IMG/VR virus record: IMGVR_UViG_3300038393_000804
Span: 83,598-147,597 of that record
Direction: 5' to 3' (one strand)
Origin: a virus
Lineage: Duplodnaviria > Heunggongvirae > Uroviricota > Caudoviricetes
DNA: 64,000 bases
Below, piece by piece: positions 2,686 through 51,264 of the stretch (within the stretch, counting starts at the first letter, position 1; the number at the start of each line of letters is the position of its first letter). The notes beneath the pieces were generated by a model. That model was not told where the DNA came from and ran no database searches. It saw nothing but the letters and a program-made list of their open reading frames with translations. Both the position numbers and the translations under genes were made by a program.

Positions 2686-5670
2686 TTACCAGCGACTTCT
2701 TGACGGCATTCCGCTTCTTCCGCCGCCCGAACCTCTAGCACCCCAGCCCAATGAAGTTCCGCGCTTTCCTACGCTTGTTTTGCGTGGTGGCGGAGGAGTA
2801 GGTTCATCCCATTTCTGGATGTACTCTTGTTTCTCCTGTTGGGTTCTGTCAGTACCTCTATAGATTCGTCCAAGCGGGTCAACGAACTTAACGTCCGCAA
2901 CCGCTACGGTTCTAGCTGGCTGTGAATCCTCAATGGTCTTAGCAATGTCAGGCATTTGGTCAATGAATGCAAAGATACCCAACATCATCGCATCGAGTGC
3001 GTGCTCATCAACATTGGTGTAAGTCGGTTCGCCAGTCTTCGGAGAAATACGTTCTACTGTGTAGTTCGTCATCTGTCTGAAGATAACTTCGTCAACATCC
3101 TTGTTAGGAATCATCAACTGACCACGTTCCAATATGAGTGTCGTTTGGTTAACCATGAACGGCTTTAACGGCTTGTTATCAAACTCACGACTATATGGGT
3201 CACGTACTAGATAAGAGCTGCCAAGTGCAATACCCTTAACGACATCGCCCAATGTCTTACGCAACATTTCGACCTGATATTCACCTGAGCCTCTGTCGGC
3301 ATAAATGGCGAATGGTCTGTAAATGTTATTGAGTTCAATAATCTTCCGAACCGCGTTATCATAGGTAAATTCGCCCTTTGGTATTTCTACACGATTGATG
3401 ACTTGGAATCGTCCATATTTGACTACTCCTGGCCCATCAACCTCTGGGCGTGGTCGCCTTTCTAAGAATGGATTCCATTGAGTAACAACGATTTGAGTCG
3501 CTGCACCCATCTTATCCCAGTCAACGCCAATGGCGATTGGGCTGTCCATCCTAGGCTGGCTGAGTAAAGCGTAACCATTAGACGCTGCCTCGTCAATATA
3601 ATCTTTGTTAAATACCCCCACTAATTCTGTACCGAAGTTCGCCATAACCTCATGGTCGTAAGCCACGTCACTGTAAAGGTTGCGTAATTCCCTTTCCATC
3701 TTCGGTGACCAGCCTGGGTTAACCATCGTTGGGAAGTAGAACTCCGCCCATCCTTCAGCTAGTTTTCGGTCATAAGTGCGGATATCAAATTGATTTGCCA
3801 GCTTACCTTCTACATCAGGGCCACCTTTAAATAGTCTTACATCTTGATTTAGCTTTTCCTGAGTACAGATTTGCCAGAATTTGCCCCGTCGTCCAGTCGG
3901 TGTAGATGCAACCATTACGCCGATTTCATCTGGTCTTTCAAGGGTAATCGCGAAGATAGCTTCAAAGTCTTTGTCGCCAAGGTAGTCAACCTCATCCATG
4001 TATAGCCAAGATGCTTTCTGACCACGGAGAGAACCACCCTCTGTACCACTACGAGTACCAGCTGTGTACAGCTTAATACGAGATTTATTCTTGAAGACAA
4101 TCTCATATGGAGAACGACGGATACTAGCAACCGCTGCTTGAAGCACTGGATTATTGTTAATGAAGTTGTTTAACTGGTCAAATATCTCACGGGCCTGTGT
4201 ATCGTATGGTGTTGCAACCAGACATGTAGCACCTTTCTTCAGCTCTGTACCACCATTACATGTAAAGGCAACCCAAAGCATATGCGCTGTCATTGTCCAT
4301 GTGTTATGCACCAATACATCTTCTACTACTAGGTTGTGAGTCTCTGGAACGAATACGTCATAAGTCTGACGCTTACCCAGTGGCTCAATCGCCGTCACTT
4401 CTTCCCAGATAACATCAGCACGAGCCAAGTCATAAAGGAATGCGGACTCAAGATTGTCAGCATACTTACGAATCTTAGAAATAGTCGGAGCTACGCCAGG
4501 ACGAAGACGTTCGTCTTTGCCGCCAGCTACCTGAGCTTTCGACATTTTCTTCTCTTTACGCTCTTGGTCAATATGCTTCCACACTTCAATAGGAACAGTG
4601 TGTTCTACTACTTCTGTCTTCTCTGCTTGCTCCACAATACCTTTCATTGTGTATTCAGAGCCAAGAATATTAATGTCCATGCCGAAAAGCATTAAGCTTT
4701 CGCGTCTATGAATCATCAATTGATAGATAAAGCTGACGTTGTCCTTGTACTTCTGCCTCTTTGTTTGGAGATTTGTCTGGATACCGAAGCGAAGCAATAG
4801 GTGCTTAACATCCTGTGCAAGCTTCTTAGATACTGTTGCAAATCCAATCTCTGGACGTGTGCCATTATAAACCCATCCACTTACTGCATATAAGCAATTT
4901 AGGAAGATAGATATTTGCTCTTTCTTCAATCCATAAATGAAACTAGGAATCTTTCTTTCTATTACTGCCATAAGGATGTCTTCATCAATAGAAGAAGCAA
5001 TGACACATGTATTCTCCTTATGAGCTTGGCGAATAACCTTTAGTCCATACTTCTCTGCATTATAGATGAAATCTTTCATAACAGTCTGAGACTTAGTACT
5101 GAATGTTAATTGGCTTCCGTTGTAATGTCCGCCTGCAATCAAATAAGCAATAAGCTTTACCTTTTCATAGAGCGTTAATCCGTTCCCGAAATAAGGCATA
5201 GCTGATGGTGTTGCAATGCGCATTCCCTTTTGAAGAGCATCCACTTCCACCCAACCATCTAATGTTAATACAGGATGATTGCCAGTCAGGATAACTTCTG
5301 CCCCGTATTTAGTGCGCACAAGAAATGTTTCCTTTACCCCATTGTCCTCTACAAAGAAAGCTTCACTTGGTTCTAAGTGATACTTCTCGTTTAATGTGAT
5401 GAGTGACGGTTTGCCGCCATCTTTCTGCATTTGGAATAGCTCTTCTACTGACCAGTACTCTCCTGTTACTGGGTCTAATACACGTTGGGTTTCCTCAATA
5501 CATTTTCCGATACGTCGTCCGCATCGAAGAACTTTACGGTGGTGAGGATGTCTTAAGATTTGCTCTTGATACCAACGAGGGGCCTCACCTAAATGGTGAG
5601 CTGCCCACTTCGCTGGGTCACGCATAATCTCAATCATTTCCCTATCGTGATTAGTAAATTGTTTTGCCAT
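2686..5670 (-). CDS. terL: terminase large subunit, interrupted in-frame by an intein
   Basis: Exteins join as CGRRIGK|TWT, giving a Walker A GxxxxGKT. Walker B LYMDEVD follows. A C-terminal nuclease-like region is present. Intein blocks: CIEET (A), GNHPVLT (B), LIAYLIAGGHY and FLNCLYAVSGWV (LAGLIDADG), VLVHN|T (G). Confidence 0.85.
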   Translation of the reverse strand: MAKQFTNHDREMIEIMRDPAKWAAHHLGEAPRWYQEQILRHPHHRKVLRCGRRIGKCIEETQRVLDPVTGEYWSVEELFQMQKDGGKPSLITLNEKYHLEPSEAFFVEDNGVKETFLVRTKYGAEVILTGNHPVLTLDGWVEVDALQKGMRIATPSAMPYFGNGLTLYEKVKLIAYLIAGGHYNGSQLTFSTKSQTVMKDFIYNAEKYGLKVIRQAHKENTCVIASSIDEDILMAVIERKIPSFIYGLKKEQISIFLNCLYAVSGWVYNGTRPEIGFATVSKKLAQDVKHLLLRFGIQTNLQTKRQKYKDNVSFIYQLMIHRRESLMLFGMDINILGSEYTMKGIVEQAEKTEVVEHTVPIEVWKHIDQERKEKKMSKAQVAGGKDERLRPGVAPTISKIRKYADNLESAFLYDLARADVIWEEVTAIEPLGKRQTYDVFVPETHNLVVEDVLVHNTWTMTAHMLWVAFTCNGGTELKKGATCLVATPYDTQAREIFDQLNNFINNNPVLQAAVASIRRSPYEIVFKNKSRIKLYTAGTRSGTEGGSLRGQKASWLYMDEVDYLGDKDFEAIFAITLERPDEIGVMVASTPTGRRGKFWQICTQEKLNQDVRLFKGGPDVEGKLANQFDIRTYDRKLAEGWAEFYFPTMVNPGWSPKMERELRNLYSDVAYDHEVMANFGTELVGVFNKDYIDEAASNGYALLSQPRMDSPIAIGVDWDKMGAATQIVVTQWNPFLERRPRPEVDGPGVVKYGRFQVINRVEIPKGEFTYDNAVRKIIELNNIYRPFAIYADRGSGEYQVEMLRKTLGDVVKGIALGSSYLVRDPYSREFDNKPLKPFMVNQTTLILERGQLMIPNKDVDEVIFRQMTNYTVERISPKTGEPTYTNVDEHALDAMMLGIFAFIDQMPDIAKTIEDSQPARTVAVADVKFVDPLGRIYRGTDRTQQEKQEYIQKWDEPTPPPPRKTSVGKRGTSLGWGARGSGGGRSGMPSRSRW
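4303..5502 (-). mobile_element. Intein of about 400 aa (TerL residues about 57-456) with a LAGLIDADG homing endonuclease domain, inserted in the TerL P-loop
   Basis: Starts with Cys right after GRRIGK and ends in HN followed by Thr. Two LAGLIDADG-like motifs lie between the splicing blocks. Confidence 0.7.
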
Positions 5671-12708: not shown

Positions 12709-12875
12709 TGAACAAAACATTAACAGTAATTGAGAAATGCGAAAGAATGGATGCACATGCACCTAAATGGGAGATTTGGATTGGACAAGAACTAGTACAA
12801 ACTGTTGTATTCAGACAGTACTTAGAGGCTACTGTGGCCTACTACAAGAAGCAGCTAGCAAAGGGTGCTATATAG
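12709..12875 (+). CDS. hypothetical small protein, 55 aa
   Basis: AAGGTGG RBS before the ATG at 12709. Confidence 0.45.
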
Positions 12876-12965
12876 TAGGGCCTCTATATAAGGGGTGCTA
12901 TATAAGGGGCCTTCCTATAAGGGGGGTCTATATAAGGGGGGGTCCTATATAGGGCCTCCTATATT
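12866..12965. repeat. array of about 7 direct repeats of CTATATA(A)GGGG with 14-17 bp periodicity
   Basis: Read directly: gctatatagtaggg / ctctatataagggg / tgctatataagggg / ccttcctataagggggg / tctatataaggggggg / tcctatataggg / cctcctatattt. Confidence 0.6.
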
Positions 12966-13009
12966 TGTGTTTACATAAAAAACCTACAACTAGAAAAGAG
13001 GAAAAGAAA

Positions 13010-15250: not shown

Positions 15251-15283
15251 TAAAAAACTAAACTAGCAAAGGTGGAGTCTATA

Positions 15284-25463: not shown

Positions 25464-25506
25464 TTAACCAAAAAACTATAACTAATAATAAGGATGGTAA
25501 TTAATC

Positions 25507-26727
25507 ATGACTAAATTTGTAAAATTCGTAGCAACTACTGAAGATGTTAAAGCTGGTGTTGATGTTCTTGTTGAAGACTTCCAAATGACTGTTAACAACT
25601 TTACTGCTGAGGGCAAGAACGGACTTGAAGAAGCTGTTGATATGTATGTGATGGAAGCTATCAACGGCGGAGAGAAGTCCATCGCTGTAGTATCTGATGA
25701 TATCAATGTTGCTAATGCAATCGCTGCTGTACTAAACCAAGCATACACTAAGGAGATGGAATTAATGAAAACTACTAAAACTGCTGAAATCACTGTATCT
25801 GTTGAATCTACACCTGAAGAAAAGAAAGCTGCTACTATCGCTAAATCATCTGCTGCACAAAAGTTCTTGGCTAAACATGCAAACAAAGTTGAAAACACTA
25901 AGGAGGAAGTTGAAATGAAACAAGAAGAAAAGAAGGTTGCTGGTCGTCGTCGTTTAAATACTGGTGCTGCTACACAAGAAGAAAAGAAAGCTGAAGTAAA
26001 AGAAACTAAAACTACAACTAATGAAAAGGTGGAAACTGAAATGAATAAACCAAACCGTAAATCTACTAGCCGTGTACTAAAGAATACTAAGCCTGCTGCT
26101 GCTGAAGGTCGTCGTCGTCTAGGTCGCTCTGAATCAATCAAGAATGAATTCAAGAAGTTTGAAGGCCCTTGGTACTTGAATGCTGAACTATACCCTGTAT
26201 TAAACCGATTAGAAGGAATCCTTGAAACATTGTCTGATGCTGAACTAGGTATTGAGCAAATCGTATTGGTTGACCCAAGTGAAGTGTCTCGTACTCGTAA
26301 CAACCCAGACATCACTGTGGTAATCCAAATCAAAGCTAATGGTAACATCTTGGAGTTCCCAATCAAGAATGCATCTGCTAACTCTAGCTCTGACCTTGCA
26401 TCTACTTCTATTGGATGGGTGGATACAAAGAACGGCCTTCGTCCTGCATTCGGTTTCTGGAGACCTAATGAAATCAATGTGAAAGCTACTTGTACTTGCG
26501 GTAAAGAATTCAAAGGCAACACTGGTAACCTATACTGCACAAGCTGCAAGAAGAAACATGCTGACGCTGAAGTATCTGTATCACACGCTTTGGATATGGA
26601 GTTTGATGGCAACTGGGTATTCCAAACTGTTCCTAACTTGGTTGTACCTCGTGAAACTCTTGCATTAATCATGGCTATTGCTCAGTATGATGCTGGTCTT
26701 GACATGTGGGGAGTTGTAGCAGAGTAA
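25507..26727 (+). CDS. hypothetical protein, 406 aa, with a Lys/Glu-rich basic middle segment (repeated GRRRL)
   Basis: AAGGATGGTAAT RBS; terminator downstream. Confidence 0.65.
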   Translation: MTKFVKFVATTEDVKAGVDVLVEDFQMTVNNFTAEGKNGLEEAVDMYVMEAINGGEKSIAVVSDDINVANAIAAVLNQAYTKEMELMKTTKTAEITVSVESTPEEKKAATIAKSSAAQKFLAKHANKVENTKEEVEMKQEEKKVAGRRRLNTGAATQEEKKAEVKETKTTTNEKVETEMNKPNRKSTSRVLKNTKPAAAEGRRRLGRSESIKNEFKKFEGPWYLNAELYPVLNRLEGILETLSDAELGIEQIVLVDPSEVSRTRNNPDITVVIQIKANGNILEFPIKNASANSSSDLASTSIGWVDTKNGLRPAFGFWRPNEINVKATCTCGKEFKGNTGNLYCTSCKKKHADAEVSVSHALDMEFDGNWVFQTVPNLVVPRETLALIMAIAQYDAGLDMWGVVAE

Positions 26728-26760: not shown

Positions 26761-27402
26761 CTATATAGGGAGATGATTACTTGTATGGGCTGCTAGTTTT
26801 ATACATTATCTATATACGCTGGAGAATATACCCGCCCGATACGCCGAGCGAAGCGAGGCCAAGCTTGACTGGTAGGAGGCGCGTTACAAGTTCAAGTGAA
26901 TGGGGGGAAGCTGTCACGGAGTTTACGCATGGGAAGGGGACCCTTAAGATTCGAACTTGTTGCGCCGACGCACGCGGGGAGCGTTTAGCTATAGAGGCCC
27001 CGTTCTTTATCGGACCCTGCGGTAGCAGGTGCAAGCCCGATGGCGAGCGATGAGCGAGCCATATGCAAATAGGGTGTGGGAGTCCCTATATAGGAGGACC
27101 TGCCTTCGGCTGACTATTCGCCTTCGGCTGGTTGAAGTTGTGGGGGGACCCCTTTAGAGGAGGCTTTCGCTGGTGGGCGTATTACGCCTGATTAATTGAA
27201 TTGAATTAATAGGTAGGATGTATATAGAGAGTATCATGTACTATATAGGTATATGGTATATATAGCAGGAACTATATAGGGAGAGGAAGACTATATAGAA
27301 TAGAGTGTTATACGTGGCGGCATTGTTTTTCATATGTGGTGTCATAATGCTATATGATTTAGCTAATAGGCATAAGTAGTACTATATAGGAGGAATGGTA
27401 GA

Positions 27403-27651
27403 ATGGAAGAGTTTATTGATAAGTGTATGTATGTATTAAAGGAAGGGATGACACTGGGCACCGACGGGCTATTCATCTCTTATATAGGCAATGATATCTA
27501 TATAGTACAGGACCCTGTATTACCAGAGTGTGATACCGAAGAAGGTCCAGTGGAGATACGCCGCCGCTTGGAGGAATACTATATAAGCCATCCTATGGAG
27601 ATGGAGATGGACAGAGACTATATAGAGGAACGCATAGGGAGCGCCGTGTAG
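27403..27651 (+). CDS. hypothetical acidic protein, 82 aa
   Basis: TAGGAGGAATGG RBS; contains CTATATAG motifs within the coding sequence. Confidence 0.5.
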   Translation: MEEFIDKCMYVLKEGMTLGTDGLFISYIGNDIYIVQDPVLPECDTEEGPVEIRRRLEEYYISHPMEMEMDRDYIEERIGSAV

Positions 27652-27696
27652 GTGACTCCCTTTCTCTCTGGATGTCATAAAGTCATGGTAACTTAC

Positions 27697-27712
27697 TTAA
27701 CCTTAAGGTAAC
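27697..27712. promoter_or_regulatory. operator-like motif TTAACCTTAAGGTAAC (reverse complement GTTACCTTAAGGTTAA), the inverted copy of the 11079 motif
   Basis: 15/16-nt identity with 11079-11093 in the opposite orientation. Confidence 0.4.
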
Positions 27713-28115
27713 AAATGGACACACTAAAAGTGGGCCTAGGTAAGACACAATGAATGTTTGAGGGTACTGGTAGTAAAAAGTCCTTGCGTACCAAGGGTTT
27801 GAGAGGTTATGTTTATTTATTTGTACCTTGTGCCTATATTATGGGTGACTAATGACTAAAGTCATAAGTACTATAATAAGAGGTAAAAGTGGAAAATACA
27901 CCTATGAAAGGAAAGTTGTATGGATAATTATAATAAATGTGCTATATGGTTTTGTTTAGGTATAGGTACTTCTATGTGGTTAGGTGTTCTATTAGCTTAT
28001 CTTGTATGGGGTAATGCTATATGGTCTATCTCTATATAGTTGTCTATGTCTTATTGTACTATATAGTGATGTTGTAATCATAAGGTAATCCCGCCCGCCA
28101 TTAGGAGGTGATGTT

Positions 28116-33943: not shown

Positions 33944-35197
33944 ATGAACGAAATGGAATTTGCTAATGCAGTGCATGAAGCTGGGGGTATTGCTTACCGT
34001 GTGGGTGGCAGCATCCGTAATAAAATCTTGGGCATTCCCGTTCATGATAATGATTATTGTGTTACTGGTTTAACAGGAGAACAATTTGAAAGATTATTTC
34101 CTCGTGCTTATTCTGTTGGGCTTAGCTTTCATGTATATCTTCTAGAAATCGGAGAAGAAATATGTGAGGTAGCTTTTGCTAGGAGAGAAAAGAAAGTGGG
34201 CGAAGGACACAGAGGATTTGAAATAGATTCTAGTCCCGACATTACGATTGAAGAAGACTTATCTCGTCGTGATTTTACAATGAATGCGATTGCTTATAAC
34301 ATTCTTCGAGATGAGCTTTATGACCCATTTAGCGGTCAGAGAGACATTAAGAATAAAATAATCAATGCAACAACAGAAGCGTTTAAAGAAGACCCATTAA
34401 GGGTTTATCGGGCCGCACGATTTGCTGCTCAATTAGGATTTGATGTACATCCGAATACATTAGAAATGATGAAGGATGAAACTCTACAAGAGGAGATGAA
34501 GTCATTATCGGTTGAACGTGTTTATCTTGAACTAGAAAAAGCTTTAGAGTCTGACCACCCAGAAAAGTTTTTTGAAGTACTGAAAAATGGGCAGTGCCTA
34601 CAGGTTCACTTCAAAGAAGTTTATGACTTAATTGGTGTGGAGCAACATCCTGAACATCATCCAGAGGGTGATGCGTATAATCATACGATGCAGGTTTTGT
34701 CTGAGATGTGCAAGCTAACAGACCAAGTTGAAAGGAGATTTACTGCTCTTTGTCATGACTTTGGTAAGGCTCGTACTCCTAAAGAGTTGTGGCCTAAGCA
34801 TCATGGTCATGAAGAAGCTGGTGTAGCACCGCTAGAAGAAATATGTATTCGTTTGAAGCTTCCGAAAAAATGGTTTAATGCCGCTCATTTTGGCGTTCTT
34901 AATCATATGAGATTTCATCGTGTTCATGAAATGAGGGACGTGAAGAAAGTCGATATGATTGAAGGAGCTAGAAAAAGTGCATTGGGTGTTGAAGGTCTTG
35001 CTCAATTAGGATTAGCAGATGCTCGTGGTCGGAATGGATTACATGAAGGACATTCTAATTACGGGCCATTTCTATTCTGGGCTAATGAGATTTCTAAAGT
35101 TAAAGGTAATAAGGAACTTGAAGGCATGAAAGCGTGGGATGACAAAAGAAAGAGACAGGCTGCTCTTATAAAACAAATCAAAGGAGAGAGCAAATGA
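33944..35197 (+). CDS. cca: CCA-adding tRNA nucleotidyltransferase / poly(A) polymerase family enzyme with a C-terminal HD domain
   Basis: Head domain GGSIRN...HDNDY (GGxxR[DN]...DxD), RRDFTMNAIAY, and an HD domain (HDFGK, HGHEEAG). Confidence 0.8.
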   Translation: MNEMEFANAVHEAGGIAYRVGGSIRNKILGIPVHDNDYCVTGLTGEQFERLFPRAYSVGLSFHVYLLEIGEEICEVAFARREKKVGEGHRGFEIDSSPDITIEEDLSRRDFTMNAIAYNILRDELYDPFSGQRDIKNKIINATTEAFKEDPLRVYRAARFAAQLGFDVHPNTLEMMKDETLQEEMKSLSVERVYLELEKALESDHPEKFFEVLKNGQCLQVHFKEVYDLIGVEQHPEHHPEGDAYNHTMQVLSEMCKLTDQVERRFTALCHDFGKARTPKELWPKHHGHEEAGVAPLEEICIRLKLPKKWFNAAHFGVLNHMRFHRVHEMRDVKKVDMIEGARKSALGVEGLAQLGLADARGRNGLHEGHSNYGPFLFWANEISKVKGNKELEGMKAWDDKRKRQAALIKQIKGESK

Positions 35198-44042: not shown

Positions 44043-44143
44043 AATAGCGGGAGGCCTTCGGGCTTCTCCTGCATAGAGGATACCAGATTTGTTTTCAACT
44101 ACCTCCTTTTGTTGTACCTGGTATCTTCCATGGAGGTGAAGCA

Positions 44144-45574
44144 ATGTCGATGATGGATTTGCCACCACCGCTAAAACCTACAGAAACATTAGAGCTGCTT
44201 AGAGCATACAAGGCGGGGGATGAGGAAGCTAAAGAGAAAGTAATTGAAGGTAATCTCAGGTTGGTAGTGCATATTGCAAAAAAGTATGACAACACAGGAC
44301 TAGACATAGAGGATTTGTTTAGTATTGGATTAATCGGTATGATTAAAGCTGTTCATACTTTTAACACAGAGAAGGAAGTCAAGTTTGCTACATACGCTTC
44401 ACGATGCATCGACAACGAAATCTTGATGTTCCTTCGGAAAGGTAAGAAAATCAAAGCTGAAACGTCCATTGACAGCCCGATAACGACGGATATAGATGGA
44501 CATGAATTAACTTTGATGGATGTCACGCCTGATAAGAACATCCAACATTTCTCAGAAGTGTTTGAATGGAACGATACCATGGCTGAAGTACGAGCTGCAT
44601 TGGAAGGCTTGTCGCCACGGGATAAAGATATTATTCTTATGCGTTACTTTCAAAATCAAACACAACGGGAAGTGTCGGCGGCACTCGATATCTCTCAGTC
44701 CTACATATCAAGGATAGAGAAAAAGATATTGAAGAAAATAAAAAAGACCATTGAGTCTAATCAAGCTAAGGCAGAAAGGAATGAAGAGAAAATGGCTAGA
44801 GGAATTGCACCAGCCAATAAGAAAGAAGTTATTCACTTGTTAAAGACAACGACGATGTCTTACAAAGAAATCAATGAAAAGACAGGCGTACCTTACAGCA
44901 CTATTGCAACGTATGCTCAGAAGCACCGTCCAAAAGAAGTGCGGAAGGAAAAGATGACTAATCATCCAGGCATGGTTCGTGAACATAGCGGGGACACCGA
45001 TAAAGCGGTCCAGTTGTTGGCAGAAGGTAAATATACCTATGCAGAGATATCAAAACAAACAGGTGTCCCAACAGGTAGTCTAACCAGATTACGTCGTTTA
45101 TATGAGAAAGGCGATTACAAATGGGTCAATGAACCTAAGAAACGGGTGGAGATTGAAGTACCAGTTGAAACGCCAGTGATTAATCATCCAGCTTTCATGG
45201 GTGAAAAAGACAAGGAAAGGTTGGTAGAACAAGTGCCTGTTGTAAAACATGAAGTTGAGCAAGTGGAAATCAAGAAGCCTGAACAGCCTGTTGTGAATAT
45301 GGCAGAAGCAATCGAAGAGTTCAAGGCTGAAATCAAAGCCGAGCTTCGTGCAGAAGTTGAAGCAGAGGTTCGCAAGGAGATGGCTGCTGAAAGCGTTGCT
45401 ACAGAGACATCACCAATGGGTAAGATTCAAAAGCTTCTAACATTTAAGTATCATGCTTCGGGCGGGAACGTTCCAACTGAAGATTTCGTAGCTGAAATGA
45501 AAGAGCTGATTAGCATGCTTGAAGAAAGCAATAACGGTTCTATCACATTCACATTAAATGTAGAAGCTGAGTAG
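44144..45574 (+). CDS. sigma-70 family sigma factor resembling sporulation SigF/SigG (regions 2-4), fused to a roughly 270-aa C-terminal extension carrying two extra HTH-like repeats
   Basis: Region 2 IEGNLRLVVHIAKKYDNTGLDIEDLFSIGLIGMIKAVHTFN...KFATYASRCIDNEILMFLRK. Region 4 LSPRDKDIILMRYFQNQTQREVSAALDISQSYISRIEKKILKKIKK. Confidence 0.8.
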   Translation: MSMMDLPPPLKPTETLELLRAYKAGDEEAKEKVIEGNLRLVVHIAKKYDNTGLDIEDLFSIGLIGMIKAVHTFNTEKEVKFATYASRCIDNEILMFLRKGKKIKAETSIDSPITTDIDGHELTLMDVTPDKNIQHFSEVFEWNDTMAEVRAALEGLSPRDKDIILMRYFQNQTQREVSAALDISQSYISRIEKKILKKIKKTIESNQAKAERNEEKMARGIAPANKKEVIHLLKTTTMSYKEINEKTGVPYSTIATYAQKHRPKEVRKEKMTNHPGMVREHSGDTDKAVQLLAEGKYTYAEISKQTGVPTGSLTRLRRLYEKGDYKWVNEPKKRVEIEVPVETPVINHPAFMGEKDKERLVEQVPVVKHEVEQVEIKKPEQPVVNMAEAIEEFKAEIKAELRAEVEAEVRKEMAAESVATETSPMGKIQKLLTFKYHASGGNVPTEDFVAEMKELISMLEESNNGSITFTLNVEAE

Positions 45575-45575
45575 G

Positions 45576-45600
45576 CCCTTCGGGGCCTTCTGCTTTCTGG
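45576..45600 (+). terminator. UUCG-loop terminator (GGCCC-TTCG-GGGCC plus a T-rich tail)
   Basis: Read directly. Confidence 0.5.
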
Positions 45601-45611
45601 GGGGTTAGCAG

Positions 45612-45734
45612 ATGTATGAAGGCAAGACGTTAACAATGTGGGATACATTACAAGCATATTTTTATTTCTTCAGTATCCCAGTTGCACTTATGATTGTACT
45701 TATTTTTATAGCAGTTTGGATATGGAAAAAGTGA
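45612..45734 (+). CDS. small membrane peptide, 40 aa
   Basis: GGGGGG RBS; hydrophobic. Confidence 0.3.
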   Translation: MYEGKTLTMWDTLQAYFYFFSIPVALMIVLIFIAVWIWKK

Positions 45735-46811: not shown

Positions 46812-46962
46812 TTGTGCTTGTTGTAGTAATACCCGAAAGGTCATGTACGAGGGCGAAGAAATCATTTGCCCCGTATGTGAGGATTATGTAGAAGATAAAA
46901 CTAAAATAGATACCATAGGGAGAGATGGCAATGTTAGCGACAGGAATCATCAGAAAGATTGA
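46804..46962 (+). CDS. small zinc-ribbon protein, 52 aa (CACC...CPVC)
   Basis: Overlapping ATGATTAA coupling; Cys pairs. Confidence 0.4.
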   Translation: MINCACCSNTRKVMYEGEEIICPVCEDYVEDKTKIDTIGRDGNVSDRNHQKD

Positions 46963-47179
46963 TAGCTTAGGACGTATCGTAATACCAAAAGAAATGCGTA
47001 GAGCAATGGGTTGCGAGGATGACCAAGCAATGGAATTCTTTAAAGATGGGGAAAACATTGTTCTTCGCAAGTACAATCCAGGTTGTGCAGAATGCGGTAC
47101 AGTAGTAGCTATTCATGAATTACATGGCAAGACAGGTATTTGCCCAACATGCATTGCAAAATTAGTAGAGTCACTTTAG
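46931..47179 (+). CDS. AbrB/SpoVT-N (swapped-hairpin) domain protein with a C-terminal CxxC...CxxC zinc ribbon
   Basis: TGIIRKIDSLGRIVIPKEMRRAMG closely matches the AbrB N-domain TGIVRKVDELGRVVIPIELRRTLG. C-terminus is CAEC...CPTC. Confidence 0.7.
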   Translation: MLATGIIRKIDSLGRIVIPKEMRRAMGCEDDQAMEFFKDGENIVLRKYNPGCAECGTVVAIHELHGKTGICPTCIAKLVESL

Positions 47180-47191
47180 GAGGATGATTGG

Positions 47192-47488
47192 ATGCTAGAA
47201 AAAATTAAGCAAATCAAAGATGCACTACCATTGCAATTTAAAGATACACCGCACTTCGCTCATCATGTTATTACAAAGATTGATGAATTTGAAGAGCAGG
47301 AGCGCAGGCTATCGGCATCCAATGCATTAGCTGGCATCAAACAAAACCCTGTTGAAGAATCAGTAAGAAGGGAAACACTAAGAGTTGTGAGAGCTATCAT
47401 CATGAAGGAACTTGCGGACACTGTCGAAGATATGCTTCATTTAGGTGATAAGTATCATGAGGTCAAACATAAGGATGGGATTCGATGA
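47192..47488 (+). CDS. hypothetical protein, 98 aa
   Basis: TTAGGAGGATGATTGG RBS. Confidence 0.5.
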   Translation: MLEKIKQIKDALPLQFKDTPHFAHHVITKIDEFEEQERRLSASNALAGIKQNPVEESVRRETLRVVRAIIMKELADTVEDMLHLGDKYHEVKHKDGIR

Positions 47489-48225
47489 AGAAGCATGACA
47501 GACATGTTGTTGCTATGATAAATGGCGGCAGTCATATGCGTAATTTAAATGATGAACAATCAGATGTGGATTTGAAATACTTTGTTCTTCCAACCTTTGA
47601 TGATTTATATGAAGGCAAGAAGCATGCAAAGCAAACAACTTCGGATGAAGTGGATGAAGATGTTCAGGATGTAAGACGGCTTGAGACTTTATTGTTCAAA
47701 GCGAATCCTGCTTATCTTGATTTATTATTTAGCCCAGGCATTGAAACATTCGGATGCCAGAAGATGGATGAAATCATTGCGATGAGAGATGACATAGCCA
47801 ATATGAATCTCTCCAATCTTTACAGTGCTACGATGGGTACGGTTCAGCGGAACATCAATGACCTTCAGAATCCAACTTCGGAGAAGACACGGGCACTGAT
47901 TGAACGACATGCTTACAATCCAAAGAAAGCAATGTTGGCTGTTCATCTTTGCAAAGTACTGGTTAAGTTTCATGCAAATGGCTTTACGGACTACAAGAAA
48001 GCTATCTGGTATGAAGGTGAAGAACGCCAGTTCATGATAGATATCAAACGTGGTAAGTTTACATTTGATGAAATCAGAATGCTGATTAAGGATTGGGAAA
48101 CAGCAGCACAAGAATTAAAAGATGTTTACAAATCAAAAGAAATTCGTGTCGAAGTAAACAATCAGCTTCAGGAGAAGCTAAGAGATTTAATCTTTGATGC
48201 GACTTTAGATGGGTGGATAATATGA
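47485..48225 (+). CDS. Pol-beta-superfamily nucleotidyltransferase-like protein, 246 aa
   Basis: GGSHMRNLNDEQSDVDL fits GS-x9-11-DxD. Confidence 0.5.
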   Translation: MKKHDRHVVAMINGGSHMRNLNDEQSDVDLKYFVLPTFDDLYEGKKHAKQTTSDEVDEDVQDVRRLETLLFKANPAYLDLLFSPGIETFGCQKMDEIIAMRDDIANMNLSNLYSATMGTVQRNINDLQNPTSEKTRALIERHAYNPKKAMLAVHLCKVLVKFHANGFTDYKKAIWYEGEERQFMIDIKRGKFTFDEIRMLIKDWETAAQELKDVYKSKEIRVEVNNQLQEKLRDLIFDATLDGWII

Positions 48226-48452
48226 TATTTTACAATGATACAAACAAGGAGTATGTGATTCATCCAGCAACAGCGATTCATGGGATTGAATGCGATATGA
48301 GTCCCATCCCGCCACGCACAACACGTAAGTTTAAGGCTCCAAAAGGCATTGACCCATTCGTGAAAGTTTGGGAGTACGACAACAGCAATACGATTCTTGT
48401 ATCGGCAGCATTCGGTGAACCATTAGAAGAAGAAGTGGAGGAGTCAAAATGA
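48222..48452 (+). CDS. hypothetical small protein, 76 aa
   Basis: GGGTGG RBS before the ATG at 48222. Confidence 0.45.
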   Translation: MIFYNDTNKEYVIHPATAIHGIECDMSPIPPRTTRKFKAPKGIDPFVKVWEYDNSNTILVSAAFGEPLEEEVEESK

Positions 48453-49327
48453 TTTTATTAAATGGCAAAGAAGTTCCGTTCGGTAGATTTCCTAATGGCG
48501 AAACACATGTGATTACAACAATTGAAGCAACGGAGGAGCATCCAGCGCTCAATTTCTTCAAACAAAATATGGAGCAGGTAAATATCCTATCATTTAAGTA
48601 CGAAGATGATGCGGATTTAATCAAGCTGATGTTTGTTAAGAATCACATGGACTTGATTGCAACAGTTCCTTGTTATCTGCTTGTTTATTACATGCCTTAT
48701 TCACGCATGGACAGAAGCGAAGGCGGCAGCGTATTTACTTTAAAATATGTTTCTGCTTTTATTAACAGCCTTTATTTCGATAAAGTGTTTGTGATTGAAC
48801 CACATTCAGATGTAACATGTGCATTGCTTGACCGTTCAAAACCATTAATGGTAAATCAATTCTTAGTGAACTATGTTATGAATGAAATTGATTTTGATTT
48901 CGACAATGATTTCCTTGTTTATCCTGATGCTGGTGCGGAGAAACGTTACGAGAAAATGTTTGACCTTCAAGCAATCGTTGGTTTGAAACATCGTGATTTC
49001 CAAACAGGTTACATAACGAAACTTGATTTGGTTACACCAGGCATTGGTAAGAAAGCGATTATCGTTGATGACTTATCCAGTAAGGGTGGTACGTTTATCA
49101 TGGCTGCTGATGAGTTGAAGAAGCGTGGCTTTGAAGAAATCTATCTTTGTGTGGCTCACGCAGAAGACACTATCTTCAAGGGTAAAATATTTACGGAAAG
49201 TCCAATCAACAAAGTGTTTACAACCAACTCTATCTTATCTGACCAAGCTCAACATGATTGGGCAAATCAGCTATATAAAGATAAGATTGATGTGACGGAT
49301 GTCGAGGAGCTGATTGTTCTTGACTGA
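48449..49327 (+). CDS. ribose-phosphate pyrophosphokinase (PRPP synthetase, Prs) homolog; a candidate ADPR-PP synthetase (Adps) of a NARP1-type pathway
   Basis: Prs signatures RFPNGE, MPYSRMDR, IEPHSD and the PRPP-binding loop IIVDDLSSKGGT. Confidence 0.75.
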   Translation: MILLNGKEVPFGRFPNGETHVITTIEATEEHPALNFFKQNMEQVNILSFKYEDDADLIKLMFVKNHMDLIATVPCYLLVYYMPYSRMDRSEGGSVFTLKYVSAFINSLYFDKVFVIEPHSDVTCALLDRSKPLMVNQFLVNYVMNEIDFDFDNDFLVYPDAGAEKRYEKMFDLQAIVGLKHRDFQTGYITKLDLVTPGIGKKAIIVDDLSSKGGTFIMAADELKKRGFEEIYLCVAHAEDTIFKGKIFTESPINKVFTTNSILSDQAQHDWANQLYKDKIDVTDVEELIVLD

Positions 49328-49742
49328 CCCGTACCTATTGCCAGGTGCTGCAACCCTTCGTTTAATTAAGGAGTGGGAGCAGCACGGGAAGTTAATCGTT
49401 GCTTATGACTTTGATGGAACGGTTCATGACTACCACAAGGAAGGCAACAAGTACGACCAAGTCATTGAACTTCTTCGGGAGTGCAAGAAGCTTGGCTGTT
49501 ACTTGATTGTCTTTAGTACAAGTGAACCAGAACGACATGATTTCATTAAGAATTATCTTGATAGATGGGATATTCCTTATGACGCAGTCAATGAAAACAT
49601 GCCAGGTCTTCCGTTTAAAGGCGGCAAGATTTATTACAACATCCTGCTGGACGACAGAGCAGGATTAGAGTCAGCTTATTATTCATTAAAGCAAGCTAGC
49701 AGTTATATTAAATTGAAACGGGAGGAAACAAATAATGACTAA
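49314..49742 (+). CDS. HAD-superfamily phosphatase-like protein
   Basis: DxDGT motif (YDFDGTV) near the N-terminus; TTG start with GAGGAG. Confidence 0.55.
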   Translation: MFLTDPYLLPGAATLRLIKEWEQHGKLIVAYDFDGTVHDYHKEGNKYDQVIELLRECKKLGCYLIVFSTSEPERHDFIKNYLDRWDIPYDAVNENMPGLPFKGGKIYYNILLDDRAGLESAYYSLKQASSYIKLKREETNND

Positions 49743-51264
49743 AACTATTTTTCCAGCTACATTGTTGTGTGATTTTTACAAGGTGTCTCACCGTGAGCAG
49801 TATCCAAAGAAAACAAATAAGGTTTTCAGCACATGGATTGCACGAGGCAACAAGTACTTCCCGAAAGCAAAGAAAGTTGTAGCGTTTAACTTCCAAGGAT
49901 TAACCAAGAAATACTTTGTTGATTACTTCAATGAGCATTTCTTTAGCCGTCCAAAGGATGAAGTGGTATTTGAATACCAACGTGTTATCTACTTTACATT
50001 AATCAATCCTGGCAATGTTCAGGGTGTTGCAGACCCATTAATGGAAGCATCAAAGGTCGATGCGGAGCACATTGCAGCTCTTCATGATTTAGGTTATCTT
50101 CCAGTTCGTGTAAGAGCTGTGAAAGAAGGTACGTTGGTTCCAATGCGTGTTCCAATGTTGGTCATCGAAAATACAGTGGATGAATTCTACTGGGTAACAA
50201 ATTATCTTGAAACCATTATGTCAGCTGAGCTTTGGCAGCCAACAACATCTGCAACGATTGCTTACACGTACCGTCAGATTCTTGATGCGTATGCGATGGA
50301 AACAACAGGTTCTACAGCAGGTGTTGAATTCCAGGGTCATGATTTCTCTATGCGCGGTATGGCTGGCAAGGATGCGGCGGCAGCAAGTGGTGCTGGTCAC
50401 TTACTAAGTTTTGTTGGTACAGATACAATCCCAGCTATCAATTATCTTGAAGCTTATTACAATGCAAACATCGAGAAAGAATTGGTGGCAACTTCAATAC
50501 CTGCGACTGAACATTCAGTGATGTGCGCATACGGTCAAACAGATGAGTATGAATTATTCAAATCACTGATGACTGAAAAGTATCCAACAGGTTTCTTCAG
50601 CGTAGTATCTGATACTTGGGACTTCTGGAAAGTGGTTGGTGAATACTTACCGAAGCTGAAAGAAGAAATCCTTGGTCGTGATGGTCGCGTGGTTATTCGT
50701 CCTGACAGTGGTGACCCAGTTAAGATTCTTTGTGGTGACCCGAATGCAGAAGAAGAATTGGTGCGTAAAGGTTTAATTGAGAGCCTCTACGACATCATTG
50801 GCGGCACAGTAAATGATTTAGGGTACAAAGTATTAGACCCTCACATCGGAGCTATCTACGGCGATTCTATTACGCTAGAGAGAGCTGATTTGATTTGTGC
50901 TTTGTTAAAAGAAAAAGGCTTTGCTTCAACAAACGTGGTATTTGGTATCGGAAGCTTTACCTATCAGTATACAACGCGTGATACATTTGCACATGCGATG
51001 AAAGCAACCTTTGCTGAAGTGGATGGAGAAGAGCGCTTCTTATTGAAAGACCCTAAGACAGATGATGGTACAAAGAAATCATTAACTGGATTAGTGGCAG
51101 TTGTAAAAGTCGGTGGTGAATTAGTAGCCACTGATAATCTGGATACGAAAACTTATGAAGCAAACTTTGCAAACATTGACCTTCTTGAAGTTATCTTTGA
51201 GAACGGTGAAATCAAACGTGAAGAAAGCTTATCTGAAATTCGTGAAAGATTGGCGGCCCAATAA
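49735..51264 (+). CDS. nadV: nicotinamide phosphoribosyltransferase (NAMPT/NadV) family enzyme; alternatively a Namat-type nicotinamide ADPR transferase
   Basis: N-terminal DFYKVSHREQYP matches the NadV D.YK.SH..QYP signature; GGGAGGAAAC RBS. Confidence 0.8.
   Translation: MTKTIFPATLLCDFYKVSHREQYPKKTNKVFSTWIARGNKYFPKAKKVVAFNFQGLTKKYFVDYFNEHFFSRPKDEVVFEYQRVIYFTLINPGNVQGVADPLMEASKVDAEHIAALHDLGYLPVRVRAVKEGTLVPMRVPMLVIENTVDEFYWVTNYLETIMSAELWQPTTSATIAYTYRQILDAYAMETTGSTAGVEFQGHDFSMRGMAGKDAAAASGAGHLLSFVGTDTIPAINYLEAYYNANIEKELVATSIPATEHSVMCAYGQTDEYELFKSLMTEKYPTGFFSVVSDTWDFWKVVGEYLPKLKEEILGRDGRVVIRPDSGDPVKILCGDPNAEEELVRKGLIESLYDIIGGTVNDLGYKVLDPHIGAIYGDSITLERADLICALLKEKGFASTNVVFGIGSFTYQYTTRDTFAHAMKATFAEVDGEERFLLKDPKTDDGTKKSLTGLVAVVKVGGELVATDNLDTKTYEANFANIDLLEVIFENGEIKREESLSEIRERLAAQ

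Follow-up and report, generated by a model that had tools for sequence, protein, structure and literature searches.

A sporulation-like phage sigma factor with a conserved helix-turn-helix extension that is fused to, or lies beside, sigma genes of Bacillus phages

Why does a tailed phage encode a sporulation-type sigma factor that runs on for 270 residues past its sigma core, and what could the added part contribute to transcription? The question is raised by a gene within a 64,000-nucleotide stretch of a Caudoviricetes genome (positions 83,598 to 147,597 of IMG/VR record IMGVR_UViG_3300038393_000804; hereafter the window). An original prediction, made from the sequence letters and their translations, described the open reading frame (ORF) at 44144-45574 as a SigF/SigG-like factor with two extra helix-turn-helix (HTH) repeats and an acidic tail, and considered a fused DNA-binding module unusual. 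The ORF with its long extension is confirmed, its coordinates being exact (476 aa); the assignment to SigF/SigG is not. What follows the sigma core is made up of HTH modules and a C-terminal domain (CTD), and this HTH-CTD unit is a conserved accessory that Bacillus phages combine with sporulation-like sigma factors, either fused to the sigma core or encoded next to it. The window gene is thus a divergent member of a group that is present in public genomes and has been partly tested.

Distribution and continuity of the sigma-extension fusion

An exhaustive HMMER search of 1.84 billion representative proteins with the extension gave 62 matches, most of them the C-terminal part of proteins of 360-600 aa that also carry a sigma core; nine came from a second search, word-indexed, that used a profile of the extension. 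In the phage collection the extension occurs in 34 records, all Bacillus phages of ~150-165 kb (including Goe8, P59, Eldridge, Goe3 and phiNIT1-like phages), and it always lies inside or adjoining a sigma gene. PHROG 351 spans the full window protein at 265.6 bits, with phrog_8794 at 84 bits. Given this spread, calling the fusion unusual is wrong for sequenced phages, and fair for what has been described: literature searches on the HTH-CTD extension found no papers describing it.

The extension accompanies cores of SigE/K type in the window, Goe8, P0004, P0005 and P0010, and cores of SigF/G type in P59, Eldridge_0172, Eldridge_0171, phiNIT1 orf330, P0131 and P0137. Three of the latter (phiNIT1 orf330, P59 and Eldridge_0172) align end to end with SigF/G models, P59 scoring 313.6 bits against the SigF/G subfamily, above its cutoff, and Eldridge_0172 309 bits. 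The phiNIT1-like phages have the same modules as the window, in the same order and at the same locus, but as two genes: orf330 encodes the SigF/G-type sigma with one HTH, and after the break the next gene, orf137, encodes an HTH and the CTD from its own ribosome-binding site (RBS). This separate gene indicates that the HTH-CTD unit can function as a free protein. A further candidate for a stand-alone homologue, P0121, is a contig-edge fragment, so it does not represent a split gene.

The window frame itself is uninterrupted, with zero internal stops, and its N terminus (MSMMDLP) is identical in the aligned relatives. P0002 and P0003 share 63% and 62% identity with the window protein over 100% of its length, and the whole architecture is common to these two, P0004, P0007, P0011, Goe8, P59 and others, from independent samples. 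In total, at least 10 relatives, each assembled independently and taken from different samples and isolates, have the frame unbroken, and a Joint Genome Institute (JGI) fragment is 100% identical to the window protein over 352 aa that cross the sigma/extension junction. This continuity excludes a missed stop or frameshift. Programmed frameshifting was also considered, but inspection of the junction by eye showed no canonical slippery heptamer. Of the original proviso that the extension might be a separate gene, what survives is that it has its own conserved RBS and ATG and is a separate gene in phiNIT1-like phages. Both facts would suit an artefact in which sequencing or assembly error merged a sigma gene with an HTH gene; with the frame intact in the window and its relatives, and the junction matched exactly by the JGI fragment, we consider such an artefact extremely improbable. 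No near-identical DNA was found in the phage records, and no relatives in IMG/VR, whether the query was the single protein or a close alignment. Among GTDB representative genomes the sole match was an unrelated sigma region 2 in a Prevotella metagenome-assembled genome, and the search therefore yields no host or prophage clue.

The sigma core and its clade

The window protein is a sigma factor, far above chance: Pfam Sigma70_r2 matches aa 34-101 (E=5.5e-18, 65 bits against a cutoff of 24) and Sigma70_r4 matches aa 152-201 (E=4.4e-20, 71.4 bits against 24.1). Domain 2 is modelled by AlphaFold2 with a predicted local distance difference test score (pLDDT) above 90, and Foldseek matches the fold of the core to sigma factors in holoenzyme structures. 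The Sigma70 domain search that had been proposed thus returned regions 2 and 4; Pfam found no Sigma70_r3 in the protein, and about 40 residues lie between domains 2 and 4. At 14.2 bits against a cutoff of 21.1, the Sigma70_ECF model argues against a core of the extracytoplasmic function (ECF) type.

The original prediction was right in seeing a sporulation-type homologue, the sporulation families of NCBIfam being the top matches, but it chose the wrong branch. SigE scores 223.3 bits (model positions 37-238 of 241; a second SigE model gives 213.5 bits) and SigK 220.1 bits (positions 27-233 of 235), both aligning end to end with the sigma core (aa 6-205). The SigF/SigG subfamily model reaches 143 bits against a cutoff of 311, in two separate stretches without region 3, and the SigF equivalog (138 against 321) and SigG (133 against 372) likewise miss their cutoffs. 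Bacterial SigE is ~50% identical across the core, and the top bacterial matches named by their source are SigE or an unspecified sporulation sigma factor, with no SigF or SigG among them. The helices of regions 2.4 and 4.2 set promoter specificity; in the window protein region 2.4 shares 75% identity with annotated SigE proteins, and the recognition helix of region 4.2, ISQSYISRIEKK, has 10 or 11 of 12 residues identical to that of SigE (ISQSYISRLEKR/K). On these comparisons the core is of SigE/SigK type, that is, of the mother-cell clade, and not of SigF/SigG type. It shares with bacterial SigE and SigK, beside the near-identical regions 2.4 and 4.2, a short or absent region 3; it differs from them in missing the five-residue 'GLxG' insertion of region 4.1, and the 270-aa C-terminal extension is absent from every bacterial SigE in the match list. 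In one relative, P0003 (locus L004), region 4.2 has Arg in place of the Gln of the window protein and SigE (ISRTYISR as opposed to ISQSYISR), at a position that presumably separates SigK from SigE.

A further difference from the host factors lies at the N terminus. Pro-peptides hold host pro-SigE and pro-SigK inactive until they are cleaved by SpoIIGA and SpoIVFB, respectively. Just five residues precede the LPPPL motif at which the match to SigE and SigK begins, and so the pro-peptide typical of both is absent, as the start positions of the alignments show; such a protein is not subject to the checkpoints set by SpoIIGA and SpoIVFB.

It remains to weigh the forespore identity first proposed, in which the protein would be a SigF/SigG-like factor reading GywTA-N15-GGnrAnAnTw promoters, perhaps under the control of SpoIIAB. 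A similarity to forespore sigma factors does exist, including the region 4 that had been singled out: regions 2 and 4 align with SigF in PDB entry 1l0o_C (113 bits, in two pieces), and the extension family includes P59 and Eldridge_0172 with their SigF/G-type cores. The far better, unbroken matches to SigE and SigK, the lack of a region 3 and the names of the top bacterial matches nevertheless make this identity highly improbable. Promoter scans with simple consensus patterns, run on the + strand of window positions 10001-64000, which hold most of the genes, point the same way, the SigF pattern having 0 matches against 0.7 expected. SpoIIAB is the anti-sigma factor of SigF and SigG, and its binding is not expected for a SigE/K-type core. 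The SpoIIAB and SigF-promoter tests first suggested thus aim at the wrong system, because the core belongs to the SigE/SigK clade.

The HTH modules, the C-terminal domain and a probable internal start

The extension opens with a short charged linker that leads, in the alignment of relatives, to a conserved methionine, M217, and continues with the two HTH-like repeats noticed originally, which hold up on closer comparison. Repeat 2 (aa 287-323) scores above the Pfam gathering thresholds for HTH_23 (35.3 bits), HTH_28 (35.3) and Trp_repressor (32.9), while the HTH matches of repeat 1 (aa 228-262) are weaker and sub-threshold; the two are paralogous (BLASTP E=1e-5), and AlphaFold2 models both as three-helix bundles with pLDDT about 90. 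The family motif of these modules is GNRxxAIxLLxxTxxxYxEIxxxTGVPxGT..A..HRPxxVR, present in one to three copies per member and in two in the window protein (one relative, P0004 from locus L010, has three). A fused module of the HTH DNA-binding type, as first proposed, agrees with the Pfam matches and with Foldseek, whose hits were the DNA-binding domains of Mos1, DeoR and Pax (best E=0.24, below significance). Across the family the Pfam matches are weak and spread over Sigma70_r4_2, HTH_23, HTH_28 and HTH families of transposases and resolvases, Sigma70_r4_2 being the most frequent (8/22 modules, best E=2.5e-5). We do not claim that the modules arose by duplication of sigma region 4, because the profile comparison (hhalign) gave a probability of just 28%; nor was a SpoIIID/GerE-like origin borne out, no such family appearing among the Pfam matches listed (25 of 28). 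The modules are of a kind with the HTH domains of Tc3/mariner transposases, Hin/Tn3 resolvases and TrpR-like proteins, but the window protein has no catalytic domain and the modules make up a sequence family of their own, for which small homeodomain-like HTH modules is the most fitting description.

The acidic helical tail of the original prediction proved to be two things. The helix is there, and its motif EA(I/V)EEF(K/R)xE(I/V) recurs among relatives, but it is followed by a separate conserved domain, the CTD. Its residue pattern, IxRxxxFxYxxxGxxV..DF..EL......VTFxLxVxA, suggests strand-helix-strand. The CTD was aligned with 19 relatives, and phmmer gave E values of 2e-26 to 9e-06 against the CTDs of relatives; it has no Pfam family, no sequence relative in the PDB and no fold match.

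The HTH-CTD unit may also be made on its own. M217 is preceded by a Shine-Dalgarno (SD)-like run whose predicted duplex with the anti-SD sequence (-10.9 kcal/mol) ranks in the top 0.9% of positions in the gene. At the DNA level, all 11 family genes with both HTH and CTD have an in-frame ATG at most 10 codons ahead of the first HTH, and each of these ATGs has an SD-like run (-9.1 to -13.6 kcal/mol; e.g. aaGGAGGaagtcgttATG and agaGGAGGagaaagacATG) that ranks among the best 0.2-3.4% of the in-frame positions in its own gene and equals annotated starts (-11 to -16.6). Neither of the two genes with an HTH and no CTD (Eldridge_0171 and phiNIT1 orf330) has such an internal site, and later HTH modules are mostly without an internal SD and ATG. 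The methionine equivalent to M217 is conserved within an otherwise variable linker. Moreover phiNIT1 orf137, a separate gene in a complete genome, has its start in the equivalent position with respect to the GNR motif, and so do the metagenomic P0132 and P0162, possibly incomplete sequences, which begin at the HTH. Taken together, these sequence features make M217 a probable second translation start, giving a free HTH-CTD protein of 260 aa; alternatively the SD and ATG are a relic of the fusion, retained by chance. As to whether the internal start is in use, our rough judgement is evenly divided. The features of the gene are collected in Table 1.

Table 1. Predicted features of the sigma gene and its flanks, in window coordinates
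Feature	Coordinates	Strand	Remarks
Leader hairpin 1, GGGAGGCC-TTCG-GGCTTCTCC	44047..44072	+	RNA fold; just past the stop of the upstream gene; no U-tract
Leader hairpin 2, 11-bp stem GAGGATACCAG/CTGGTATCTTC, invariant loop	44076..44128	+	RNA fold
Shine-Dalgarno GGAGGTG of the sigma gene	44131..44137	+	7 nt before ATG; anti-SD duplex -15.2 kcal/mol
Whole ORF, sigma core and extension	44144..45574	+	476 aa; ATG start; stop codon included
Sigma domain 2 (regions 1.2-2.4), aa 6-105	44159..44458	+	Pfam Sigma70_r2; begins at the LPPPL motif
Short linker where a complete region 3 would be, aa 106-145	44459..44578	+	One beta-hairpin, modelled at low confidence
Sigma domain 4, aa 146-205, recognition helix ISQSYISRIEKK	44579..44758	+	Pfam Sigma70_r4
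Internal SD-like AGAAAGGAA and in-frame ATG (M217, nt 44792)	44773..44794	+	Candidate start of a 260-aa HTH-CTD protein
HTH module 1, aa 222-268	44807..44947	+	Family profile E=2e-28; pLDDT ~90; basic tail HRPKEVRK at end
HTH module 2, aa 281-323	44984..45112	+	Family profile E=7e-13; pLDDT ~93
Variable linker, aa 324-385	45113..45298	+	pLDDT <50 over most; length and sequence differ among relatives
Conserved acidic amphipathic helix, aa 386-413, AEAIEEFKAEIKAELRAEVEAEVRKE	45299..45382	+	pLDDT ~88
Conserved C-terminal domain (~50 aa), aa 426-476	45419..45571	+	Alignments; pLDDT 70-80
Terminator-like hairpin AGGCCCTTCGGGGCCT, then TCTGCTTTCT	45573..45598	+	Overlaps the stop codon

What the fusion may do

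The only member of the HTH-CTD architecture with functional data is g169 of phage Eldridge, whose induction in B. subtilis activated over 400 sporulation genes and lowered spore yield by 99% (PMC9429907). Schwartz et al. (2022) give identities to SigF of 31.7% for g168 and 61.6% for g169 (PMC9429907); Eldridge_0171 and Eldridge_0172 are the sole adjacent sigma pair in the Eldridge genome, and judged by similarity to SigF, g168 fits Eldridge_0171 and g169 fits Eldridge_0172. What these authors cloned were 'coding sequences'; the word 'C-terminal' does not occur in their text and the extension goes unmentioned (PMC9429907). Like the window protein, g169 (506 aa) has an HTH module, the CTD and an internal RBS with ATG, and g168 is a sporulation-like sigma with an HTH module. 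They differ from it in their SigF/G-type cores with region 3 and in having one HTH per protein in place of two, and Eldridge is a ~166-kb Herelleviridae phage, whereas the window appears by sequence to belong to a jumbo-phage lineage. Closer in its core is the 'RNA polymerase sigma factor' of vB_BmeM-Goe8 (461 aa; Herelleviridae, Bastillevirinae), the closest full-length homologue from an isolate (33% identity, 95% coverage). Its core, too, is of SigE/K type (183 and 172 bits), and it shares the HTH, the CTD and the internal RBS with ATG, but has a single HTH module; a literature search found no functional data on it. The sigma factor gp2.21 of the lytic Bacillus phage SPO1 is sigK-like, hence of the mother-cell type to which the window core is assigned; it is non-essential and its role has been left unresolved (PMC9429907).

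We hypothesize that the gene encodes a composite of two parts: a DNA-binding cofactor and, linked to it, a pro-less SigE-like sigma factor that serves the host core RNA polymerase. We lean towards this reading, with parts of unequal strength. Made without a pro-peptide, the sigma factor would be active upon translation, independently of the host proteases SpoIIGA and SpoIVFB. By analogy with Eldridge g169 it would load onto the host core RNA polymerase, and because the helices with which it reads the -10 and -35 elements are almost the same as in SigE, the promoters it reads would likely be SigE-like ones, mainly in the host chromosome; the sporulation programme might then misfire or be blocked, as with g169. 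The HTH modules probably bind DNA beside the promoter, and the CTD, the acidic helix or both may bind a partner or one another's copies, tuning promoter usage. The retargeting of promoter choice suggested originally is still a live idea. Translation from the RBS and ATG at M217 could add the HTH-CTD unit alone, so that the cell would contain the fusion plus a free cofactor. Our rough judgements are that a functional SigE/K-type sigma is very probable, that DNA binding by the extension is rather likely, and that the chances for and against the host sporulation regulon as the main target are balanced. In favour of host targets we count that the scanned part of the window holds no excess of SigE, SigK, SigF or SigG consensus promoters; the SigK-type -10 element CATAnnnTA is even rarer there than expected (6 against 14.7 +/- 3.9 in Markov-generated controls).

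Several observations weigh against the composite. SigE, while the top-scoring family, remains under its cutoffs of 339 and 348.6, and the SigK score under the NCBIfam cutoff of 252; because it falls under both, the protein is a relative within the SigE/K clade and not an orthologue, and its promoter specificity could have drifted. The transfer of function from g169 is by analogy, because the core of g169 is SigF-type, and another phage sporulation-like sigma, SP10 g120, had no effect on host sporulation (PMC9429907). The promoter scans covered 54 kb and one strand of a genome that is probably larger than 200 kb. As for the internal start, synonymous-codon resampling does find the sequences more SD-like than the protein requires, but the combined Fisher P of 4.7e-4 overstates the case because the family genes are related and not independent, and per gene P is mostly 0.04-0.2. 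The SD-like runs sit in Lys/Glu-rich linkers, whose codons are purine-rich anyway, and in the window 10 nt separate the SD core from the ATG, a spacing longer than ideal. In the structural models, DSSP assigns only the helix of the CTD, at moderate confidence, and the packing between domains is not confident (predicted template modelling scores, pTM, of 0.29 and 0.26).

A bolder form of the composite, which we hold tentatively and think rather doubtful, takes the one frame to encode two cooperating proteins, the sigma-cofactor fusion and the free cofactor (aa 217-476), with the CTD allowing free and fused copies, or several copies, to assemble. In that case the holoenzyme would bring along an activator, or a competitor, of its own and recognise an extended promoter. 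If so, the accessory unit would be a general feature of Bacillus phage sporulation-like sigma factors, and it may have shaped the results obtained with Eldridge g169 and Goe3 g157, if whole coding sequences were expressed, as the wording of that study suggests.

SPO1 gp28 and gp34 are sigma factors of that phage's own timed gene programme. The window protein might likewise serve the middle or late programme of its own phage, its HTH modules, which could add sequence specificity, reading a phage element upstream of the -35. It is the sole sigma gene of the 64-kb window, and recurrent non-coding motifs that might be such elements are at hand (ACTATATAG in 12 copies, AAAAACTA upstream of six genes); moreover SPO1 gp2.21 has been proposed to read sigK-like phage promoters (PMC9429907). 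We nonetheless find this unlikely. The lack of a homologue in 20 kb of phage Edson speaks for an accessory and not a core gene, the promoter-reading helices remain near those of host SigE, SigE/K-type promoters are not in excess in the scanned part of the window, and SPO1 and SP10 do not need their sporulation-like sigma factors to grow lytically (PMC9429907). Somewhat less likely again, in our view, is an extension that is mainly regulatory, its acidic helix or CTD folding onto the core, or binding a partner, and so switching the sigma factor; the partner could be an anti-sigma-like protein, the beta-flap or the free HTH-CTD protein. The conserved acidic helix and CTD, which bear no DNA-binding signature, would suit this, as would the weak Sigma70_r4_2 matches of 8/22 HTH modules, sigma region 4 being a beta-flap-binding fold. 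There is also precedent in ECF sigma factors with regulatory C-terminal extensions (PMC7826278). Factors of groups such as ECF41 and ECF42 resemble the window protein in that they combine sigma domains 2 and 4 without a complete region 3 and bear an extra domain fused to the C terminus, but belong to another sigma clade, and the extensions have no sequence relation. Those of ECF factors are SnoaL-like, tetratricopeptide repeat (TPR) or similar sensor domains that modulate activity, not HTH repeats. Against a mainly regulatory extension, AlphaFold2 shows no docking onto the core (pTM 0.29), and the HTH modules bear a Gly-Asn/Asp-Arg arm and a basic tail, which we take to be typical of Hin/Tc3-type DNA-binding domains. 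In addition, g169 is a sigma factor in vivo, so that the extension is not simply inhibitory if, as the phrase 'coding sequences' suggests, g169 was expressed with the extension attached.

Sporulation-like sigma factors are already known from phages, the sigK-like one of SPO1 among them, and phage-borne sporulation sigma factors are known to give phages a means of interfering with host dormancy; the experiments to date have used SigF/G-type phage proteins, handled as plain sigma factors. What is new here is a phage sigma of mother-cell (SigE/K) type without the pro-peptide that ties activation to a developmental checkpoint; we found no published description of a pro-less SigE/K core combined with a two-HTH HTH-CTD unit and a probable nested start. 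The gene is more ordinary than first thought in that the fusion is widespread, and more interesting in its conserved CTD, the evolution between fused and split forms and the candidate internal start. If the unit steers promoter choice or is made as a second protein, it could explain why phage sigma factors differ so much in their effects in B. subtilis. On the same condition, the gene would illustrate compactly how a transcription cofactor can be built into a sigma factor, and would be a clear added case of nested translation in phage regulatory genes.

Leader, genomic setting and other features of the window

The leader of the sigma gene (44047-44143) is better conserved than the proteins it precedes, with 82% column identity across four loci against ~63% identity of their proteins. 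Hairpin 1 is conserved in the four loci, and its 3' arm, GCUUCUCC, can instead pair with the invariant Shine-Dalgarno of the sigma gene, GGGAGGUGAAGC (RNAalifold). Two stem pairs of hairpin 2 are altered on both sides with pairing kept, that is, by compensatory changes, and its apical loop, ACCUCCUUU, is a copy of the 16S rRNA 3' end. A pseudoknot between this loop and the Shine-Dalgarno was considered and set aside as sterically unlikely by reasoning, as 2 nt (CA) would have to span the 11-bp stem. Rfam matched no family in the window or in the leader. The leader may be a translational switch, or an element of RNA processing or stability. Near the sigma gene, sigma-A-type promoters were no commoner than in shuffled sequences. 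Directly past the terminator-like hairpin lies a 40-codon ORF for a small hydrophobic protein (45612-45734, + strand), and locus L004 has a similar small ORF in the same place.

As to the phage itself, the terminase large subunit is 63.6% identical to that of vB_BauM_KLEB27-3 and 58% to those of Edson and WH1, Bacillus phages of 217-234 kb that are not Herelleviridae, and a conserved 693-aa protein is 68% identical to its Edson counterpart. These protein comparisons place the window in a jumbo-phage lineage. The 20 kb of Edson that start at the homologue of the 693-aa gene contain no counterpart of the sigma factor, and the closest homologue from an isolate is that of the Herelleviridae phage Goe8; because of these two facts the sigma gene looks like a mobile accessory gene. 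The 64-kb window has one sigma gene and one copy of the extension. The neighbourhood of the gene in relatives is the same as in the window, with small genes followed by nicotinamide adenine dinucleotide (NAD)-salvage genes; downstream NAD-salvage genes are seen in loci L004, L005, L010 and L011 as well. Auxiliary metabolism genes of the window lie at 48449-51264, 33944-35197 and 47485-48225 (all + strand), the functions being phosphoribosyl pyrophosphate (PRPP) synthetase, nicotinamide phosphoribosyltransferase, tRNA nucleotidyltransferase and another nucleotidyltransferase.

Located 1.35 kb downstream of the sigma gene (46925-47179, + strand) is a gene for an 84-aa protein of the AbrB/MazE/SpoVT swapped-hairpin type (Pfam MazE_antitoxin, 43 bits; phrog_4681), in which this domain is followed by a four-cysteine CxxC...CxxC segment. 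Homologues of abrB and spoVT are listed among the sporulation regulators carried by phages (PMC10294663).

A search for k-mers enriched in intergenic DNA brought out two motifs, CTATATAG and AAAAACTA, with no tie to the sigma factor. The former is a palindrome, often present as ACTATATAGG, with 12 copies, almost all in two non-coding stretches at 12868-12967 and 26761-28066; one of these stretches is a region of ~1.3 kb with few ORFs, for which an origin, promoters or factor binding sites are candidates. The latter precedes the Shine-Dalgarno by 0-20 nt in six genes of the + strand (positions 15253, 18183, 22878, 25471, 61502 and 62868), which accounts for 6/7 of its occurrences in the window, and could be a shared leader or promoter element. 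The terminase large subunit (2686-5670, - strand) is unusually long at 993 aa; its profile covers aa 456-967 and leaves ~450 N-terminal residues outside, and KLEB27-3, Edson and WH1 share the full length. Finally, two ORFs of 396 aa (25482-26672, - strand) and 406 aa (25507-26727, + strand) are near-exactly antisense to each other, and at most one of them is likely to be a gene.

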